Shown here piece by piece: positions 2,528-43,130 of a stretch of DNA of 51,920 bases. The DNA is taken from the UHGV virus genome UHGV-0124386, one strand, 5' to 3'. Under the pieces are notes generated by a model that was given only the letters and a program-made list of their open reading frames with translations, made no database searches and was not told the DNA's origin. The DNA comes from a virus. Each line of letters begins with the position of its first letter. Within the stretch, counting starts at the first letter, position 1. The translations under genes were made by a program, and so were the position numbers.

Positions 2528-3949
2528 TTAAAAAGATGCGTTGCTCTGGCTGTTTCGTGGGGAGAATCGACTTGCCGCCGGACGTTGTTGCATTGACTGA
2601 ATGCAAGCGGACGCCGCGCGGGCCTGGTCGCATGGGATGATGTTGCCGTTATCGTCAAACCGCTGGTAAACAGTCCCCGTTTTCCCGTGACGGTTTTTTG
2701 AAACGATGATCTCCATATATTCGCGGGCAACCGATTGTTCGTTGTAGTAGCCGTCGCGGTAGACCATGATGATCCGGTCTGCGTCCTGTTCAAGATTACC
2801 GGAATCACGCAGATCAGAATTGTTCGGGCGCTTGTTCGGTCGTTCCTCAACGCGGCGGGATAATTGCGCCAGTGCCGCCACTGGCACGCGCAACTCTTTC
2901 GCCATCATTTTCAATGACCGCGACAATTGCCCTACGGCGAGATCATGACGTTCGGCCTTAGCCAGTTTCATTAACCCGATATAGTCAATCATCACCATCC
3001 CCAGGTTATGATGGTCCTGTTTCATCCGTTCGACGGTGGCGCGTATTTCCTCGACCGTTAACTGCGATGCGTCAACAATCCACACATCGAGATCGGCAAG
3101 GGCACTCATTCCCTGGGCGACGTGCGCCCAACCTTCGTCATCCAGTTTTACCGGATTACGTAGGCAATCCGTTGATAAGTTCCCAGCGCCAGCGATAGCA
3201 CGTTCAGTCATCTGATCGAGCGACATTTCAAGCGTGAACAGCAAAACGCCGACCCGCTGACCTTCGCCTCCAGGGTATGGGCGTTCAGCCGCCGCGCGGG
3301 CAATTGCCAACGCCAACGCCGATTTACCAGACCCTGGGCGTCCGGCGATAAGCACCAGATCAGTAGCGTTAATGCCGCCTAACATTTCGTCGAGTGGGTC
3401 AATCCCTGTTTTGATGTTGTCAGAGTTCACGCCACACTCCATGCGTTTACTTAACACTTCCGTGTATTCCTGGACCGCATCGCGCAACAGCACCGGGATA
3501 ATTTGATCTTTTGTTACCTTTAATTTTGAATACCGGGAATCAAAATCTTTCATCGTCTCCCTGACGACTTCAAGCGTCCCTGTTTCCAGCTTGTAGCGAA
3601 TGTCTTCCATTAGTTCCAGCATTTGCCGACGCTGGTGTTCTTCCTGTAGTAGTTGCGCATATCCTTTCAGGTTGGCAGCAGAAGGGCACGATCGTGCCGT
3701 TTGCATTAGCGGTACAAAGTTTTCATTGCCAATCTCATCGCCAACCAATAACGCGTCGATAAGATTCCTGTTTCTGGCTTGCGCCCGGATAACTTCAAAC
3801 GCACGTTTATAAAGCGGGATCGTGAACACTTCAGGATCAAGTGTGGCGAGAACATCTTGAGCGTTAGGAGTAAGGCCACCTAACAGCAGCCCGCCGATAA
3901 CTGACGCTTCACGTTCCTGCCGTAGTGAGTTTATTTGCTCAGTTACCAT
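2528..3949 (-). CDS. DnaB-family replicative DNA helicase (P22 gene 12-like, 473 aa)
   Basis: Walker A GRPGSGKS, DnaB-like motifs (MIDYIGLM, SRRVEER, DSGNLEQDADRI, IVSKNRHG); position in replication module. Confidence 0.9.
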   Translation of the reverse strand: MVTEQINSLRQEREASVIGGLLLGGLTPNAQDVLATLDPEVFTIPLYKRAFEVIRAQARNRNLIDALLVGDEIGNENFVPLMQTARSCPSAANLKGYAQLLQEEHQRRQMLELMEDIRYKLETGTLEVVRETMKDFDSRYSKLKVTKDQIIPVLLRDAVQEYTEVLSKRMECGVNSDNIKTGIDPLDEMLGGINATDLVLIAGRPGSGKSALALAIARAAAERPYPGGEGQRVGVLLFTLEMSLDQMTERAIAGAGNLSTDCLRNPVKLDDEGWAHVAQGMSALADLDVWIVDASQLTVEEIRATVERMKQDHHNLGMVMIDYIGLMKLAKAERHDLAVGQLSRSLKMMAKELRVPVAALAQLSRRVEERPNKRPNNSDLRDSGNLEQDADRIIMVYRDGYYNEQSVAREYMEIIVSKNRHGKTGTVYQRFDDNGNIIPCDQARAASACIQSMQQRPAASRFSPRNSQSNASF

Positions 3950-3967
3950 TATGTTATTGCCTCCTGT

Positions 3968-5086
3968 TTACAAAATGGAATATTCAGGGTAATAAACAAA
4001 GCGCCCGATCTCCCCATGATCCGGGCTGTAAATAATCACCGCTGCCAGACGCCGCGACCGCCAGCCGCCATTAATTGAATAAGCGTCTTTACCCGCTAAT
4101 GTGCCGTGATACTCAACAACGCCTAGCGATGATTCAATCAGCCGTTGATGGTGCCAGTGCCCGCAATGAGCGTAAACCGCCGCAGACTTGCCGAAATCCT
4201 CACGCCAGTCAGCTACGCAAGCAGACAATAAATTTTCCGGCTTTTTGATAGTGTGCCCGTGGTGGTAAGCAAGGAATGTTTTGCCGTACTGTGTGTGGTG
4301 GACGATAGCAGGGGACACATCAACAGTTACGCGCGGTTCATCTTCGTAAAAAGCCGCCAGCGCAGCACGTAGCCAAATCATACCAGACTGGTCGTGATTG
4401 CCTGATAGTACCTGGATTTCAATATCCCTATGATTTAACAACATCTTCCCGACAGCCCGCCGGACCGACCTGATCGCTACATAGACAAGTTTTGCATAGC
4501 GCGAATCGCAATCAAGAACGTGATTGCTTGATGGCGTAACTGGCAACAGCCCGTCAGTGTGAAGAACATCCCCACCGAGAAGCAAAACAGCTTTCTCAGA
4601 CATCGGCGCAGCGCCTACAGCGTAGTCAAAGAATTCATTCAATACGCGCTCAGCGATCCCAGTGTCGTAACTCTCGCCGCATTCAGCTTTATGAGCAAGC
4701 GCCCCGATATGCAGATCAAATACCGGATAAAGGGCCAGGCTTTTTTGAAAATCAATTTCCGGCACTGGCACGGCCTCCGCGCGTGGGATTTCTTCAGTGA
4801 AAGCGTCGCGGGCCGCTTCCATTAGCCTTTCCATTTCATCGCGATCACGGGCTGTTTTAATCCAGCGCATGACTGTATTCCCATCCTTATCGACAAGAAC
4901 CGACTCACCAGTAACGCCAAAACCAGGGGCGCGGCGCGTTGATAATAAACCGCGTTTCGCCAGCTTTGCGCCCAGCCGCTCGACGTTGCGTTTTGACATG
5001 CCATATTTTTCAGCGATCTGCTTGTACGTTAAACCGTTGTTATATTCAGCGATCAATTGCTCATCGCTGATTTTTCTTTGCGACAT
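3968..5086 (-). CDS. N-terminal HTH domain fused to calcineurin-like metallophosphoesterase (372 aa)
   Basis: N-terminal HTH-like segment (LTYKQIAEKYGMSKRNVERLGAKLAKRGLL); phosphoesterase motifs DLHIG, GGDVLH, GNHD, HHGH, GHWHH; SD GAGGA upstream of ATG at 5086. Confidence 0.6.
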   Translation of the reverse strand: MSQRKISDEQLIAEYNNGLTYKQIAEKYGMSKRNVERLGAKLAKRGLLSTRRAPGFGVTGESVLVDKDGNTVMRWIKTARDRDEMERLMEAARDAFTEEIPRAEAVPVPEIDFQKSLALYPVFDLHIGALAHKAECGESYDTGIAERVLNEFFDYAVGAAPMSEKAVLLLGGDVLHTDGLLPVTPSSNHVLDCDSRYAKLVYVAIRSVRRAVGKMLLNHRDIEIQVLSGNHDQSGMIWLRAALAAFYEDEPRVTVDVSPAIVHHTQYGKTFLAYHHGHTIKKPENLLSACVADWREDFGKSAAVYAHCGHWHHQRLIESSLGVVEYHGTLAGKDAYSINGGWRSRRLAAVIIYSPDHGEIGRFVYYPEYSIL

Positions 5087-5119
5087 AATGTTATTTCCTC
5101 ATGTTTACATTTTGTATAT

Positions 5120-6043
5120 TTATTGACAGCAAACAATCTCTTTATATGTTTCTTCTACCATGTCGAATACTTCCGGCCTGTAATAAAAAAATTCAGTGCT
5201 ACCATCAAACTTAACAGGGAAGTTTATTTTATAGTCACTGAAAGCATCGTGCATTTTGCTTTCTATTTCCTGCATAATCTCAGTAGGCCCATTCCATGTT
5301 TTAACTACCTGTAAATCAGTCAGCCTTACACCTGCCTTACGAGCACTTTTAAATACTCTGTTCCTCCTTTCGTTCTCTTTTACGCTTACACCAATTTTCA
5401 TTTGTGTAGGCACTTCAAGATCATCAACCATGATGTAAAGTTTTCCGTTGTAGTGTGATAAAAACCCGTATTTAGCGCATTTCGGGCAACCGCGCCCGCT
5501 CTTAATGTCTCTAGGTTTAGCCGACCACTCATGATCACAAACCTTGCAGCGGCATAATACTTTTGTACTGTTATTAACTATTTCAACCAGCACTTCAATA
5601 TCAGGATTAACCTTAGCAATAGCCGATATTTGTTCTTCATGCGATATTTTTTTGCCTTGCGCTCGTTTTAGCACCGCACATTTCTGGCAACCGCTCCCGA
5701 TCTTAAGGCTTTTAGGTGTAGAATACCACTCATGATCACAAACCTTGCAGCGGCATAATACTTTTATTTTGTCGCCGGTAATTTCCCCAAGCACTTCAAT
5801 ATCAGGATTAACCTTAGCAATAGCCGATATTTGTTCTTCATGCGATAACTTCATATTCCCAGCGCATTTCTGGCAACCACGTCCATATTTAATATTGCTA
5901 GGTGTAGCCGACCATTCATGGTTACAAACTTTGCAGCGACATAATACTTTTGTACTGTTATTAACAATTTCCCCTAACACTTCAACATCAGGATTAACTT
6001 TCGCGATAGCTGCAACTTGTTCTTCATGTGTTAACTTGCGCAT
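5120..6043 (-). CDS. protein with three tandem zinc-ribbon repeats and a C-terminal T5orf172 (GIY-YIG-like) domain (307 aa)
   Basis: Three ~60-aa repeats HEEQ.AAIAKVNPD.EVLGEI..KVLCRCKVC.HEW..P..K.G.GC.KC; C-terminal KIGVS...GSTEFF signature resembling T5orf172; strong SD AAGGAG. Confidence 0.6.
   Translation of the reverse strand: MRKLTHEEQVAAIAKVNPDVEVLGEIVNNSTKVLCRCKVCNHEWSATPSNIKYGRGCQKCAGNMKLSHEEQISAIAKVNPDIEVLGEITGDKIKVLCRCKVCDHEWYSTPKSLKIGSGCQKCAVLKRAQGKKISHEEQISAIAKVNPDIEVLVEIVNNSTKVLCRCKVCDHEWSAKPRDIKSGRGCPKCAKYGFLSHYNGKLYIMVDDLEVPTQMKIGVSVKENERRNRVFKSARKAGVRLTDLQVVKTWNGPTEIMQEIESKMHDAFSDYKINFPVKFDGSTEFFYYRPEVFDMVEETYKEIVCCQ
5476..6028. repeat. triplicated ~190-200 bp tandem repeat inside the zinc-ribbon/T5orf172 gene
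   Basis: Antisense ORFs 5544.. and 5745.. both begin MQRHNTF and a third copy follows; protein shows three near-identical modules; coordinates approximate. Confidence 0.7.
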
Positions 6044-6182
6044 CGCTCCAACTCCTTAAGAACATCATGCGCGCTACAACGCAAAAACCCACCGCGACAC
6101 CCGTTTGCACAGGTTGCAGTGTCTTATTGCGTCAGAGACGCCATCAGGTGGCTAATTTTCGATTTACAGAATGGTAGGTAGG

Positions 6183-6284
6183 TTATGGATTGATTAGCAG
6201 GTACAGACCGCCGAACAAGGCGACGTTAACAGCGATTGCCGCAGCGATGGCAAAAGCCAGGGCGAAAACGTGTTTACCGTCCAT
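6183..6284 (-). CDS. small hydrophobic peptide (33 aa) MDGKHVFALAFAIAAAIAVNVALFGGLYLLINP
   Basis: Hand-translated; SD GAGAGGA about 8 nt upstream of ATG; single predicted TM segment; below ORF-track cutoff. Confidence 0.3.
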   Translation of the reverse strand: MDGKHVFALAFAIAAAIAVNVALFGGLYLLINP

Positions 6285-6417
6285 TTTAAAATCCTCTCTG
6301 TAACGCTCTATAACGAGCTAATCGCAAAAAGGTAAGCAAGTGTAGCACCACATGCGATTTAGCTCGCTGGTGAGGTTGTTTTGTGGGTAATTTTGGATTT
6401 TTGCGGATCGTGATTGG

Positions 6418-7470
6418 TCAAAGAACGCCAGCGCGCGTATCACGTAGCGTTTTTGGTTTAAGCAGGAAATCAAGTGTCGCGGTGAAGCCATCGCCGAAGT
6501 AAAAATCTGAAGCCGTGTTTTTGAACGTTTCGAAGTAGGCGACAAAGCCGTTAATGCTTTTGTCTTTCAGGTAGTCAGTGAACGCATAGATCTTGCGTTC
6601 AAGATCCCGATCCAGTTCGGCAGGTGGTAACAGGCCGTCAAACGTGCTGTTAAATGCTTCCACCACGTCGGCAGCGTTTACAGTGGCTGACAGTTTGCGC
6701 CATTGTTCAGCATCAGTCAGATACCCATCAAATTTAGTTACCCGGCAAATGTTGATAGGCTTAGGTACTCCACCACGGCTACGCCATTGGGTTAAAGCCC
6801 ACTCAATTACTAACGTGATCTCATTCTCCGTATACGCTTTACGTGTTTTTGTTTCTGTCAGTAGTTCTACGAATGGCTTAGCATCACGACATTTGCATCC
6901 TGCCTTGTCGTTGTAGAAGGCAAGGCAACGCAATGCCGCTTCGTTTACGCCATCCTGATTGACCATTTTTTGTTCATTTTCGACAATACACGAAGTGTAT
7001 ATATCTTTTTCTCTTTCTTTTTCTACTTCTAATTCTAATTCATGACCCTTTCCTGACCCGGTCATGACCCTATCATGACCTTTTTGTGTTGGATTGATTA
7101 ACTTTTCTAATTTTAATTGCTCCTTCGCTGTGTTTATGGCGGCCCTGTAAGCGCTTTTAGAAGTCATTGATTGGTCCAGCCTTTTCAATAACTTTAAACA
7201 AGTTATGTGGCCTTGAGAACATTCAAACAAACCAATTTCGATGAAGTATTTCATCATTTCTTCTATACGTTTTTCAGTAGATCCGACGTTTCGCGCAATT
7301 ATTCTTGCGTCATGTCGTAGGTCAAAAGTTAGATTGTGCTGATCTACGTCATAAGTTATTAGTTCTAGGCAATACCAATAAAGCCCGTACCCTTCCAGGC
7401 CATAATCTAACAAAACGTTTTGAAGTTTTTCATCGCGGTTCGCATCGCTGTCATGCTTAAACCACTTCAT
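6418..7470 (-). CDS. replication initiation protein / phage replisome organizer (O-like, 350 aa)
   Basis: N-terminus MKWFKHDSDANRDEKL typical of phage replisome-organizer N-terminal domain; position upstream of helicase. Confidence 0.7.
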   Translation of the reverse strand: MKWFKHDSDANRDEKLQNVLLDYGLEGYGLYWYCLELITYDVDQHNLTFDLRHDARIIARNVGSTEKRIEEMMKYFIEIGLFECSQGHITCLKLLKRLDQSMTSKSAYRAAINTAKEQLKLEKLINPTQKGHDRVMTGSGKGHELELEVEKEREKDIYTSCIVENEQKMVNQDGVNEAALRCLAFYNDKAGCKCRDAKPFVELLTETKTRKAYTENEITLVIEWALTQWRSRGGVPKPINICRVTKFDGYLTDAEQWRKLSATVNAADVVEAFNSTFDGLLPPAELDRDLERKIYAFTDYLKDKSINGFVAYFETFKNTASDFYFGDGFTATLDFLLKPKTLRDTRAGVL

Positions 7471-7473
7471 AGA

Positions 7474-7731
7474 TCATCCCTCCGGCAACATCACTACATA
7501 GACATCACTGAATGCATCAAGACGACAAACAAATCCTTTATCCATTAACGCGGCGAAGGCATCATGTACCGTATGAACAGGAAGTTCACACATTGCGGCT
7601 ACTTCTTTGCGTGATGCATCATGTACCCGTCCTTTGTTATCTGCCTTTTCAGCCAGAGCCATTAAGACAAGTTTTTGAATCGGGCTGTTAAGTTTTACGT
7701 TCCATACTTCATTCATCATGTGCATACTCAT
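7474..7731 (-). CDS. HTH DNA-binding regulator at Cro/CII position (85 aa from ATG 7731; ORF track extends to TTG at 7809)
   Basis: Strong SD AGGAGA 7 nt upstream of ATG at 7731; HTH-like segment SRKEVAAMCELPVHTVHDAFAALMDKGFV; first gene of the leftward operon. Confidence 0.5.
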   Translation of the reverse strand: MSMHMMNEVWNVKLNSPIQKLVLMALAEKADNKGRVHDASRKEVAAMCELPVHTVHDAFAALMDKGFVCRLDAFSDVYVVMLPEG

Positions 7732-8036
7732 CGTGTTTTCTCCTATGGTTAGAGTGAACGCGCGGGCGGGCATCCCATTAGCATTAGATAGCAGTGACTG
7801 ACCGCTCAACAGATCCCGCCGTTGCGTGATATTTGTTTTTCGCTTCGCAGCGACACCGGATTTTTAAAGAGCTTAAGGTAAGTGCCTTTTTGTGCCTTCC
7901 GTTATCTTTTTCCTTGCGTCTTTGCAAGTATGGCCTTACCTTGTCTGCAAGTTTACAAAATGGAATTTTAAGATCAAGGCTTAAAATACACGTTTTGTGA
8001 CTTGCATCAAACTTTTTGAGGTTATAGGGTAGCGAC
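7732..8036. promoter_or_regulatory. divergent immunity control region between Cro-like gene and CI-like repressor
   Basis: About 300 bp non-coding; contains inverted repeat ATTTTAAG-N7-CTTAAAAT (about 7964-7986) extended by ACAAAA/TTTTGT arms, a GTTTACAAAATGGAAT motif copy (7951-7966) and a TTGCAT -35-like hexamer near 8002. Confidence 0.55.
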
Positions 8037-8684
8037 ATGAAAACAAAATGGTATGACTTAGCAAAGCAGCTCATGCGGGCGCAGGGCATGAGCCAGGATT
8101 CGCTCGCGGATCGTATGGGGATAACTAAAGGCGGCCTGTCACACTGGCTGAACGGTCGCCGAGAGCCAAATCTTGAAGATATTGCGCGGATTATGCGCGA
8201 GCTTGGTCGTCGGCAGTTTACTGTTACACATGATGGCATGGTCATTGATGATTCTGTTTCTAATACACTTCAGGCCGTGCCGCCGCGTGATTTAGGTAGT
8301 TACCCGGTTATTGACTGGAAGGACACAGTAAACAATATGGATGACGCAAGGCGTTCAGCATTACGACACGTTACGACTAGCGTTATTTGTTCAGATGACA
8401 GTTACTGGCTGGTTGCCAAAGGTGAATCAATGAACGCGCCGCAGGGGTTGAGCATCCCGGCGGGGACGATGATACTTGTGGACCCGCACGCGCCAGCTAT
8501 TGACGGCAAACTGGTTATAGCCCAGCTTGAGGAAGGGCAGATACCGACGTTTAAACAGTTGATTATTGATGGAGGTCAAAGGCTTTTACGTTCGCTCAAT
8601 CCGCTGTATCCGCCAATCCCTATGAATCCAGAATCAAAAATTATAGGCGTGGTGGTTGATGCGAAGATCGTAAACCTGCCATAA
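8037..8684 (+). CDS. CI-like repressor, HTH (XRE) + S24 LexA-like peptidase domain (215 aa)
   Basis: N-terminal HTH (QDSLADRMGITKGGLSHWLNGRREP), C-terminal S24 signature GESMNAP with downstream Lys; followed by terminator. Confidence 0.85.
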   Translation: MKTKWYDLAKQLMRAQGMSQDSLADRMGITKGGLSHWLNGRREPNLEDIARIMRELGRRQFTVTHDGMVIDDSVSNTLQAVPPRDLGSYPVIDWKDTVNNMDDARRSALRHVTTSVICSDDSYWLVAKGESMNAPQGLSIPAGTMILVDPHAPAIDGKLVIAQLEEGQIPTFKQLIIDGGQRLLRSLNPLYPPIPMNPESKIIGVVVDAKIVNLP

Positions 8685-8715: not shown

Positions 8716-8807
8716 CCTGAAGAACACCAAAACGTAAACAGAAAACGTTACTTATTGTTTAAATATCAATAGCATATAAAATATTTTAAAAAAGTATACA
8801 AAATGGA

Positions 8808-8836
8808 TTGACTCGATGTTTTACGGGGCGTATATT
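8808..8836 (+). promoter_or_regulatory. sigma70-like promoter (pL-equivalent) TTGACT-17 bp-TATATT
   Basis: Hexamers with 17-bp spacing read directly; flanked by inverted repeat TTGACTCG...CGAGTCAA (8808-8845) and preceded by a GTATACAAAATGGA motif copy. Confidence 0.5.
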
Positions 8837-9184: not shown

Positions 9185-9475
9185 ATGAGCGTTACAATTA
9201 TATATGGTAAATGTGATAGCAAAATGAATGCCAGGGAACGCAGAAGGATAAAAAGAGAAAACGAAAGAAAATCATCACCTGCAATCAATAAAACAGACAA
9301 TGTGGATAAAGCTATTCGATTTGCAAACGAGGAAAGATGCAAACCGAATGGCATTAAAGAGCATCGCAAAGGTGCGGCAAAATGGTATGCGGAAAACGAA
9401 AGCGGCAATTACTACCACGCAACACAACCGCGTAGTCTAGGGGAAAAACCCCTGGATAAAGTACGCTACAGATAA
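9185..9475 (+). CDS. N-like transcription antiterminator with arginine-rich motif (96 aa)
   Basis: N-terminal arginine-rich motif NARERRRIKRENERK resembling the boxB-binding peptides of P22 and lambda N; first gene after repressor/promoter. Confidence 0.6.
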   Translation: MSVTIIYGKCDSKMNARERRRIKRENERKSSPAINKTDNVDKAIRFANEERCKPNGIKEHRKGAAKWYAENESGNYYHATQPRSLGEKPLDKVRYR

Positions 9476-9505
9476 TACAAAATGTAAACTTTCAAAGGTG
9501 ACATT

Positions 9506-9625
9506 ATGGTTGTTCAGGCGCTTCAATTCAAACTGGCAGTAGCGGAAATGCTTCACGATGCCGAAATGTGGAGCGCCGCGAATAAAGCCTTATACATAGT
9601 GTTAACAGCACGGGAGATTAAATAG
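9506..9625 (+). CDS. small protein (39 aa) translationally coupled to erf (arf-like position)
   Basis: Hand-translated MVVQALQFKLAVAEMLHDAEMWSAANKALYIVLTAREIK; SD AAAGGTGA; stop overlaps erf GTG start (TAGTG). Confidence 0.35.
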   Translation: MVVQALQFKLAVAEMLHDAEMWSAANKALYIVLTAREIK

Positions 9626-12889: not shown

Positions 12890-12988
12890 CAGCGTGATTG
12901 CGATCACATAAATATACATTTTGTATTGTGATTGCATATCCGTTTTGTAAGCCGAAATCAAAAGGTTTACGGTGCGGAGGAAAACAAG

Positions 12989-16264: not shown

Positions 16265-16423
16265 AGTTTACAAAGTGGCATCATTGTGTGATGCGGATCA
16301 CATAATGGCGCTTTTTGTCTTGTTTGGGGGTATCCATTTTGTATACTTCAAGCAAACAAAATGCTCTTTAAAAATCCGGCAGCGCTGAAATGCGTAGAAA
16401 TCACCTGAAAAGGAGAGAGCATT

Positions 16424-21652: not shown

Positions 21653-21704
21653 TGTCGTTTGCATCAATAAATGTGATCTACACAGCAAGGTTTACGAAAT
21701 GGCA

Positions 21705-21733
21705 TTGTTTCGGCAGTGCCATTTTGTTATATA
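21705..21733 (+). promoter_or_regulatory. candidate internal promoter TTGTTT-17-TATATA overlapped by palindrome AAATGGCA-N12-TGCCATTT (21697-21724)
   Basis: Read directly from sequence in the 21653-21766 intergenic gap; also contains a CATTTTGT motif copy. Confidence 0.3.
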
Positions 21734-24794: not shown

Positions 24795-25252
24795 AGGCGT
24801 TAATTATCGCCGCTGTTGTTTGCATTATTGCCGGACTGACCGCCGTAACATGTTATTACCAGGGTGAGGCGGCAAGGTTACAGGAAGAAGTCACGGTAAC
24901 GAAAGGCGCACTGAAAACGGCAAGTAACACTATTCAGCAGATGAAGGAGCGAAACGCCGAACTGTCAAAACTTGATAAGAGGTATCACGATGAGATTAAA
25001 GCTATCAGATCTGACATTGCCGATCTGCGCACTGGCATTGATAACGGTACTATCCGGTTGCGCGTCAACGCAATACCCGTGCGAGTGTCCGACCCCGCCG
25101 CGACCGCCAGCCGCATTGATGGAGCCACCTGCGAGCTTGATGCCACTGCTAGACAATCTTATCTATCCCTCAGAGAACAACTAAAAGAGAAAGACGCACA
25201 GATCACTGGCCTACAGGACTACATCAAAACTCAGTGTTTACGCAAAGAATAG
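24764..25252 (+). CDS. Rz-like inner-membrane spanin (start uncertain, 24764 ATG or 24779 GTG)
   Basis: N-terminal TM segment, coiled-coil body, position after endolysin with embedded +1 frame lipoprotein gene. Confidence 0.65.
24990..25184 (+). CDS. Rz1-like outer-membrane lipoprotein spanin embedded in Rz (64 aa)
   Basis: Lipobox LSGC after hydrophobic signal, proline-rich mature part ([18 protein letters not shown]); entirely within Rz in another frame. Confidence 0.6.
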   Translation: MRLKLSDLTLPICALALITVLSGCASTQYPCECPTPPRPPAALMEPPASLMPLLDNLIYPSENN

Positions 25253-37704: not shown

Positions 37705-37855
37705 TTTCTTATCCTCTTTCACTTCCTCCGGGACATCCGGCCTTCCTGCATCTCTTCTATCTTTCTCTACATCATCTATACAAAACGGTATCGTTAAAAT
37801 AAAGACATTTTGTATAAAATAGATGCATAGATCACATTTTGCATGAGGTTAAATC

Positions 37856-40948: not shown

Positions 40949-41115
40949 TTTGGGCCTCCTTCGTTGGTACTGCTTTCTTCTTGCTTTCTATATACATCTT
41001 GTTGCATGCTACGTGAAGCCATTTTGTAAACTAGCTATAATCATTGTGACAAAGATCTCATTTTTCGCGTAGAAGCGCGTAAAGATATATACAAAATGTA
41101 ACTTGTGGGGGTTTT

Positions 41116-43039: not shown

Positions 43040-43130
43040 TTGAGTAAAATATACATATTGTAAAAACCTCGATCAATCCATTTTGGTATGATTTAGCGTG
43101 ACGCAGATCACAAAATGACAAGGTGAGAAA

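Follow-up and report, generated by a model that had tools for sequence, protein, structure and literature searches.

Dispersed operator-like sites putatively bound by the CI-like repressor Rep in a mEpimmI-group coliphage genome, with a promoter-less copy at the helicase gene junction

The virus genome UHGV-0124386, a 51,920-nt stretch of DNA analysed in full and referred to here as the window, carries the same 16-nt sequence, GTTTACAAAATGGAAT, twice on its + strand, at positions 3966-3981 and 7951-7966. The first copy is at the junction between a gene for a 372-aa protein and a replicative DNA helicase gene, and the second is upstream of rep, which encodes a CI-like repressor. Both copies were found to be members of a family of 19-24 sites dispersed over the window. 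We consider it probable that both are operators of Rep within about 20 such sites, the copy at 7951 being the operator next to the early leftward promoter PL and the copy at 3966 a conserved operator that has no promoter.

The two exact copies were located where the original prediction had reported them, and their likeness extends to 22 nt at 91% identity. The copy at 3966 consists of the final 11 coding nucleotides of the 372-aa gene, its TAA stop codon (3968-3970), and 2 nt of the spacer. The stop codon is therefore spanned as had been described, but the spacer, given as 19 bp, is 18 nt long up to the helicase ATG at 3949, and only 2 nt of it are covered. The copy at 7951 is inside a 305-bp gap between the first leftward gene (start at 7731 by the equivalent RefSeq annotation) and rep at 8037. 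Chance had been considered a very unlikely source of an exact 16-bp repeat in 52 kb. This was contradicted when the window was shuffled with its dinucleotides preserved and both strands were counted, as the mean was 1.37 repeated 16-mer pairs per shuffle and 73% of shuffles had at least one pair. The repeat goes beyond chance because both copies belong to a larger motif family. In the window, GTTTACAAAATGGAAT was matched seven times with up to 2 mismatches (0.09 expected) and nine times with up to 3 mismatches (1.1 expected). Since the two sites were identical at 16/16 positions in only 24 of 48 related loci, the exact identity is, on these counts, a feature of a sub-lineage and not a product of homogenisation. 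The sites in the other loci differed from each other at 1-5 positions, with GTTTACA-N3-TG kept in both.

Members of the family are 17-bp pseudo-dyads of the form GTWTACA-N3-TGG/TGT. Each contains a strong arm, GT(A/T)TACA, a 3-bp centre that is mostly AAA, and a weaker arm, TGG(A/C)(A/T)T or TGTA(A/T). A 17-mer model, GTWTACAAAATGKAWWC, which fits as GTWTACA-N3-TGKAWWC, was used to count sites in the window. Eight sites matched at 15/17 or better, compared to 0.17 expected, and 19 matched at 14/17 or better, compared to 1.9 expected, and the family as a whole was enriched 10- to 50-fold over shuffles. A looser pattern, RTWTACR-N3-YGK, which was prompted by the operators of other lineages and loosened to admit variants from the window itself, gave 24 matches where 3.5 were expected. 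Two-fold symmetry could be seen in the sites at 16330 (GTATACAAAATGGATAC) and 5103 (ATATACAAAATGTAAAC). Orthologues of the 5103 site in relatives had TTT, AAA, or GAA as the centre and unchanged arms. Such changes of the centre between conserved arms argue for a two-fold symmetric DNA-binding site and not for an RNA or coding signal.

The sites were concentrated outside coding sequence. Thirteen of the 19 touched non-coding DNA (P = 1.3e-7), a count that rests on crude open reading frame (ORF) calls in which several control regions are classed as coding, and shuffled non-coding DNA contained 0.47 sites compared to the 13 observed. By comparison with L002, a near-identical prophage annotated in RefSeq, we placed about 16 of the 19 sites in intergenic DNA or at gene junctions; the exceptions were 21218, which was coding, and 26501 and 42124, which were ambiguous. 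Column conservation of the 17-mers, calculated from 18-34 distinct haplotypes per site, was 0.91-0.99, at or above that of the 40-bp flanks for most sites. The motif family recurs in about 45 mEpimmI relatives.

By sequence, the window belongs to the mEpimmI group, as an mEp021-like phage or prophage. The region was 85-93% identical to the mEpimmI coliphages mEp515, mEp013, mEp010, mEp554, mEp044, and mEp021, and it also matched 35 Escherichia coli prophages. Phages of this group share a single immunity conferred by the CI-like repressor Rep, and Rep021 prevented infection by all six of the mEpimmI phages tested (PMC11893012). They also encode an N-like antiterminator, Gp17, and have three nut sites, nutL, nutR1, and nutR2 (PMC11893012). 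That paper describes no operators or promoters for the group, and none are annotated between positions 5000 and 13500 of the mEp021 GenBank record. The motif was not found in a phage context in the literature searched, though a 2023 paper in Arch Virol on Gp17 and the nut sites might show the PL or PR promoters. The motif was specific to the phage group. At 14/17 or better, its density was 3.4-4.6 per 10 kb in mEpimmI loci; the comparison set of other enterobacterial phages that share a tail gene (803 kb) had a density of 0.06 per 10 kb, and no site there reached 15/17.

Evidence for the binding protein came from the distribution of the motif among repressor lineages. Both domains of Rep, the C-terminal one included, show homology to lambda CI (3bdn, E 1.4e-20). 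Searches of IMG/VR and metagenomes identified the N-terminal domain type of Rep in five other lineages (L048/L050, L223, L230, L232, and L233), with the shared arm MKxxWY[D/E][L/I]AK and the recognition helix [V/I][S/T]KGA[V/I][G/S]HW. Each of these lineages had three or four 17-bp sites between its cro-like gene and rep. The site arms were GTATACA in L048/L050 and L223, ATAC(A/G)...CGTAT in L230 and L232 (with GTTTACGAAATGGGACT also in L232), and TGTACA in L233, in which the recognition helix reads TQGAM. Half-sites upstream of the gene were absent from 25 of 29 distinct homologues with a different N-terminal domain type. The motif therefore appears to travel with the DNA-binding domain of Rep. 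In addition, PR must be a target of repression by Rep, and no repeated elements other than motif sites were found there. From this we infer that the motif is most likely the operator of Rep.

A different phage regulator would be the main competitor for these sites, for example the 85-aa winged-helix (MarR-like) protein, the first product of PL, in the role of a Cro analogue, or some other small early protein. In lambda, Cro shares the operators of CI, so both a Cro analogue and Rep could bind the motif. Sites at many promoters outside the immunity region are unusual for CI-type repressors, and the phage encodes several small DNA-binding candidates by RefSeq annotation, including MarR-like and Lrp/AsnC-like proteins. 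However, no homologue of the 85-aa protein was present in L048-L050, where the same half-sites stand beside a Rep homologue with the conserved N-terminal arm and recognition helix. The tracking of arm sequence with Rep domain type in the metagenomic lineages, and the motif sites at PR, also favour Rep, and we consider it unlikely that another regulator is the binder.

The positions of the sites relative to promoters supported an operator function. Coordinates and individual placements are listed in Table 1. The layout that recurred was a pair of sites 24-26 bp apart, centre to centre, near -41 and -16 of promoters of the sigma-70 type. At PR, this pair was formed by O_R2 and O_R1, with O_R1 retained in mEp021 as ATATACGCCCCGTGATA. 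The 40990 and 41015 sites were at -16 and -41 of a leftward promoter, TTCACG-17-TATATA (41017). A comparable arrangement was found at the leftward promoter at 43076, and the L002 operon driven from the equivalent region includes a KilAC antirepressor gene. The two-site layout of PR also recurred at 37776/37801, and the counterparts of these two sites in L002 were both of the GTWTACAAAATGG type. Promoter assignment was less secure for the 12912/12936 and 21690/21716 pairs despite their 24-26-bp spacing. The 21690/21716 pair brackets a promoter-like TTGTTT-16-TTATAT, hexamers that were read by eye and fall below the scan listing; the promoter scan gave TCGGCA-16-TATAAG instead, which would place the two members at -46 and -20. 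At PR and at the 43076 promoter, the motif abuts the -35 hexamer, and the -41 placement at strong promoters is independent evidence. Among sequences of at least 8 nt, only the motif was common to the PL, PR, and nutR2 control regions; boxA was common to two of them. O_L2 is located about 43 bp ahead of the start codon of rep, an ATG that has no Shine-Dalgarno sequence, and this placement resembles that of lambda OR2 relative to PRM.

The arms of the motif resemble -35 (TTTACA) and -10 (TAAACT, TATACT) hexamers, and several sites adjoin CRP-like palindromes, TGTGA-N6-TCACA. The motif could be taken for a generic sigma-70 promoter or UP-like element, or for a site bound by CRP, OmpR, IHF, or a similar host factor. 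Such an origin is very improbable given the near absence of the motif from the other enterobacterial phages, its occurrence in both orientations and at two different promoter positions, the inconsistent distances from the CRP-like sites to candidate start sites, and the copy at 3966 that has no promoter. As a promoter element in particular, the motif was rejected: the reverse-complemented arm plus T reads as a -10 hexamer (TAAACT/TATACT), the -35/16-bp/-10 fits, seen at several sites, are partly built in, the orientation is mixed, and 3966 has no usable promoter. None of the sites known for OmpR, TyrR, IHF, and Fis fits; the phage-group specificity counts against all of them.

The 3966 copy was then considered on its own. 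The site was conserved at 0.977 compared to 0.93 and 0.90 in its flanks (33 haplotypes) and was kept beside the helicase gene in all 44 relatives covering the junction. In mEp021, mEp515, and the IMG/VR relatives L025 and L032 it remains directly upstream of the helicase ribosome-binding site despite an HNH or homing endonuclease gene 13-20 bp to its right. The mEp021 copy (record position 6062) is intergenic. In the IMG/VR relative L028, a different inserted ORF is beside the site, and the site is kept with the weak arm TGTAT, making it a nearer palindrome. No convincing promoter was detected at 3966 on either strand by the promoter scan. The best sense-strand candidate, TTACCC-16-TAAACA (TAAACC in most relatives), was under the scan cut-off, and its start would remove the Shine-Dalgarno sequence. 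An element acting at the RNA level was rejected, as the window had no match in Rfam, the helicase leader RNA folded no better than shuffles (z = 0.47), and the centre of the orthologues changes. The sites at 3966, 5103, and 9473 share a setting, each being in a gene junction of 18-33 bp at an equal distance from the start codon.

These observations bear on whether the 3966 copy has any function of its own. It could be a chance match, or the decayed remnant of an operator and promoter, kept by its overlap with the C-terminal codons of the 372-aa gene and the translation-initiation region of the helicase gene. The frequency of exact pairs in shuffled windows, the lack of a convincing promoter and of a strong partner site, the overlap with 11 coding nucleotides and a stop codon, and the loss of exact identity with 7951 in half of the relatives would all fit this. 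The retention of the site in mEp021, mEp515, L025, L032, and L028, where it no longer forms the end of the 372-aa gene and the sequence 13-20 bp away has been replaced, does not, and neither does conservation above both flanks or the existence of equivalent sites at the 5103 and 9473 junctions. A copy of no function therefore seems rather improbable to us, and we infer that the 3966 site is an operator. The original prediction had named ordinary conserved coding sequence as the contrary outcome, and the retention of the copy beside a different gene in mEp021, mEp515, and L028 does not agree with that outcome.

The original prediction had also offered two readings of the pair, as a second operator that might loop like lambda OL and OR, and as a recombination junction where two genes had been inserted. 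The first is supported in kind, because the motif is on promoters, conserved, specific to the phage group, and tracks the repressor DNA-binding domain across lineages; a simple OL/OR-like pair is not what was found, as there are about 20 dispersed sites. The second was not borne out. It is true that homology among relatives ends in five haplotypes within 0-20 bp on the right side of 3966, that it ends in many directly beside 5103 on its right, that HNH or other genes have been inserted at the junction in mEp021, mEp515, and L028, and that the window encodes an ERF recombinase. However, no second copy of the motif was found flanking the HNH or other inserts, and the 372-aa gene, which lies between the two 16-mers, was present in every relative alignable at the helicase junction or the gene-start region. 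The breakpoints at 3966 and 5103 coincide with gene boundaries, where mosaic breaks usually fall anyway, whereas most family members are on promoters and not at breakpoints. The two copies were also not homogenised across relatives. That the repeats are recombination substrates or scars, whether at module-exchange boundaries or at an insertion junction in the replication module, is highly unlikely.

Two further features of the junction were recorded. The 372-aa/helicase junction (about 3983-4000) is an insertion hot-spot, with inserts always to the right of the operator-like site; insert coordinates are 3985-4539 in L001, 1081-1584 in L175, and 3971-4657 in L028. The junctions at 3942-3982, 5084-5119, and 9473-9508 share a cassette of about 41 bp, which is composed of the 17-bp site, 7 nt with the Shine-Dalgarno sequence, and ACAT(A/T)ATG(G/T), which spans the start codon. 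In all three, the end of the site is 16 nt ahead of the ATG, and the start-codon part is a weak second copy of the motif 24 bp away.

Several observations weigh against the reading of the family as Rep operators and of 3966 as one of them. The 3966 site overlaps coding sequence here, which could explain part of its conservation, and has no strong partner 24-26 bp away. The best partner candidate, at 3942-3958 (24 bp off, over the helicase ATG), matched at 12/17 and varies among relatives, and it was not counted. The 3966 copy is 4 kb from rep, which is itself flanked by the 7951, 7986, and 8794/8819 sites. The PL candidate matches at only 8/12 positions, and its -35 hexamer is not conserved in all relatives. 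The -16 placement is partly built in, since the arm GTAWAC plus T reads as a -10 hexamer. A Cro-like protein or other phage regulator could use the same sites. The L048-L050 loci, of about 15 kb each, have sites only beside rep, so that dispersal is not general to this repressor family. Finally, heteroimmune phages carrying this replication module were looked for and none came to light, as IMG/VR returned only the same group and one 33%-identical outlier, and contig scans returned nothing.

If the sites are Rep operators, a mechanism can be proposed. In the lysogen, dimers of Rep would bind the sites, often as pairs 24-26 bp apart near -41 and -16, and would keep PL, PR, and the nutR2 promoter silent, together with several other promoters. 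At 3966, bound Rep could act as a roadblock that shields the helicase gene from read-through of the variable genes or HNH inserts upstream. The 5103 site is immediately downstream of a variable gene, the zinc-ribbon gene. Alternatively or additionally, 3966 could be the distant end of a cooperative loop to O_L or O_R, formed through the lambda-like C-terminal domain of Rep. We put forward more tentatively, and with some doubt, the broader proposal that mEpimmI coliphages silence the whole prophage through a CI-type dimeric network of about 20 operators, in which Rep at the promoter-less junction sites would act as a roadblock or anchor a loop, so that lytic genes are insulated from genes that have been inserted or are expressed during lysogeny.

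The system, as read from sequence, resembles the lambda operators OL and OR in several respects. Both have 17-bp pseudo-dyads with one consensus half and one weaker half, and pairs 24-26 bp apart, centre to centre, over the -35 and -10 hexamers of lytic promoters, an arrangement in which the 3966 copy does not take part. In both, the promoter of the repressor gene, a candidate one here, has a site abutting its -35, the repressor start codon has no Shine-Dalgarno sequence, and the repressors are homologous, including the C-terminal cooperativity domain. Unlike lambda, with 6 sites in two clusters, this phage has about 20 sites over 50 kb, and some of these, including 3966, have no promoter. The rep gene is between PL and PR and flanked by both, there is a third nut-linked early promoter, and the operator sequence is unrelated to that of lambda. 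Extra repressor sites outside the main switch occur in coliphage 186, where CI has the distal sites FL and FR and a distant promoter, pB, and in Bacillus phage phi105, which has multi-site operators; some are within or beyond the early genes, and they strengthen repression or control remote promoters. In those phages there are a handful of sites within a few hundred bp or at one remote promoter, whereas here there are about 20, several in late and tail regions.

In layout, the sites resemble those of cluster A mycobacteriophages such as L5, which have more than 20 repressor sites genome-wide, in promoters and in short intergenic spaces inside operons (PMC9283540). These stoperators were proposed to silence read-through transcription in the lysogen (PMC9283540). 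The mEpimmI sites are similarly dispersed (19-24), nearly all non-coding, and in some cases in junctions of 18-33 bp. In L5, each site is an asymmetric 13-mer, the repressor binds as a monomer that has two DNA-binding domains, and the sites are oriented according to the direction of transcription (PMC9283540). In contrast, the mEpimmI sites are pseudo-dyads, Rep combines HTH_3 with Peptidase_S24 and is a homologue of lambda CI, and orientation is mixed within rightward units (8794+, 16266+, 16330-, 21690+, 21716-). Because the defining features of asymmetry, monomeric binding, and orientation are not shared, the resemblance is one of analogy in layout and not of family membership. The network, if true, would correspond in function to the stoperators while being built, in an enterobacterial phage, on a symmetric CI-type system that is unrelated to them.

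In human gut E. coli, phages of the mEpimmI group match lambdoid phages in prevalence. The repressor and the N-like antiterminator of the group are characterised, whereas no description of its operators and promoters was found in the literature searched. The analysis yields a candidate operator consensus, a map of about 20 sites, and a recurring two-operator promoter layout, and assigns likely early promoters, namely PL, PR, and the nutR2 promoter. This is plausibly the first operator map for a prevalent, little-studied coliphage group, in a dispersed layout that would be unusual for a CI-type repressor. Should the promoter-less junction sites work as proposed, a CI-type repressor would control transcription well beyond the immunity switch, and the sites would offer a compact repressor-dependent insulator for engineering.

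Table 1. Operator-like sites, candidate promoters, and neighbouring genes in the window.
Feature	Coordinates	Strand	Remarks
Promoter-less operator-like site GTTTACAAAATGGAATA (first 16-mer copy)	3966-3982	+	Over last 4 codons and stop of 372-aa gene; centre 25 bp upstream of helicase ATG
O_L1, GTTTACAAAATGGAATT (second 16-mer copy)	7951-7967	+	Over spacer and -10 of best PL candidate; centre about -16
PL candidate, TTGATC-16-TAAACT	7977-7950	-	8/12 match, under promoter-scan threshold; putative assignment
O_L2, ATACACGTTTTGTGACT (AAATACATTTTGTGACT in most relatives)	7986-8002	+	Abuts -35 TTGCAT of candidate rep promoter
Possible third site upstream of PR, GTTTACGTTTTGGTGTT	8723-8739	-	Just past rep terminator; weaker member
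O_R2, GTATACAAAATGGATTG	8794-8810	+	Overlaps first 3 nt of PR -35; centre -41; identical in 25/29 haplotypes
PR, TTGACT-17-TATATT	8808-8836	+	10/12 match; upstream of nutR1 and early rightward genes; likely assignment
O_R1, ATATACGCCCCGTAAAA	8819-8835	-	Over PR spacer and -10; centre -16; 25 bp from O_R2; fits RTWTACR-N3-YGK
Near-palindromic site ATATACAAAATGTAAAC	5103-5119	-	33-bp spacer between variable zinc-ribbon gene and 372-aa gene
Site TAATACAAAATGTAAAC	9473-9489	+	Directly past stop of 96-aa gene, gp17 counterpart
Site pair 12912-12928 and 12936-12952	12912-12952		24 bp centre to centre; intergenic
Sites 16266-16282 (+) and 16330-16346 (-)	16266-16346		16330 over spacer and -10 of TTGTTT-16-TATACT, upstream of nutR2 boxA (16363-)
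Inverted pair 21690-21706 (+) and 21716-21732 (-)	21690-21732		26 bp apart
Site pair 37776-37792 and 37801-37817	37776-37817		25 bp apart; upstream of tape-measure gene
Sites 40990-41006, 41015-41031, and 41087-41103	40990-41103		Divergent intergenic region
Sites 43049-43065 and 43075-43091	43049-43091		-16 and -42 of leftward promoter TTGATC-17-TATATT (43076)
Sites 50422-50438 and 50456-50472	50422-50472		Intergenic, after tail-fibre gene
Replicative DNA helicase gene	2528-3949	-	Downstream of 3966 site
372-aa gene	3968-5086	-	Weak N-terminal helix-turn-helix matches; 'metallophosphoesterase' in some RefSeq records
rep, CI-like repressor	8037-8684	+	HTH_3 and Peptidase_S24; proposed motif binder

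The region around rep contained additional features. The rep ATG is about 7 nt past a -10-like hexamer, TAGGGT or TATAGG, with the -35 TTGCAT (8002-8039). Since this ATG also has no Shine-Dalgarno sequence, the rep mRNA is suggested to be leaderless, as is that of lambda cI from PRM. In L050, L223, L230, and L232, a TATAAT was found 6-7 nt before the rep ATG, within the rep-proximal operator. The mEp021 GenBank record uses a later repressor start, giving 199 aa compared to 215 aa. Between O_L1 and O_L2 (7970-7991) there is an inverted repeat with perfect 7-bp arms, TTTTAAG-ATCAAGG-CTTAAAA, which is partly conserved in relatives and could be the site of a second regulator, such as a Cro analogue. 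The nutL (7836-7872) and nutR2 (16363-16399) sites are in inverted orientation to each other, as an inverted repeat.

CRP-like palindromes (TGTGA-N6-TCACA, up to 1 mismatch) were counted six times in the window, compared to about 1.5 by chance by our own estimate. They were located at 7996-8011, 12893-12908, 16287-16302, 41045-41060, 43097-43112, and 50447-50462, all in intergenic control regions beside operator-like sites. The palindrome at 16287 matches perfectly and, with a T-run after it, also has the form of a terminator hairpin. These palindromes could be host CRP sites, terminators, or sites of another protein. CRP was rejected as an explanation for the motif, given the inconsistent distances to candidate start sites, the absence of a CRP-like palindrome at PR, and the terminator-like character of 16287.

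The leftward operon encodes, in order, the 85-aa winged-helix protein, a Lin1244-type replication protein, the zinc-ribbon protein, the 372-aa protein, and the helicase. The zinc-ribbon gene contains, at 5474-6033, three tandem copies of about 173-200 nt that are 82-84% identical, and its product gave three DUF4379/CapR-homology matches. This gene region varies among relatives, as is typical of accessory (cargo) genes. A degenerate copy of the motif, TACCATTCTGTAAATC, is present on the minus strand at 6162-6178, after the stop of a possible 35-aa ORF (6284-6180), where a gap of 375 bp separates the replication gene from the zinc-ribbon gene.

Other repeats were noted in the window. An unrelated exact 19-bp direct repeat, CGCCGCGACCGCCAGCCGC, occurs at 4050-4068 and 25096-25114, two unrelated places, indicating that long exact repeats of no obvious function are present. 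A 34-nt element, ATTTTTCGCGTAG(C/A)A(A/G)CGCGTAAA..., occurs twice, at 28934-28967 and 41060-41093, with 85% identity; it contains a CGCG...CGCG hairpin, and the copy at 41060 adjoins motif sites. The tail-fibre gene (1656 aa) contains five copies of a 59-nt unit at 48080-48924, spaced in multiples of 108 nt, in agreement with the C-terminal repeats reported for J-like proteins of the mEpimmI group.

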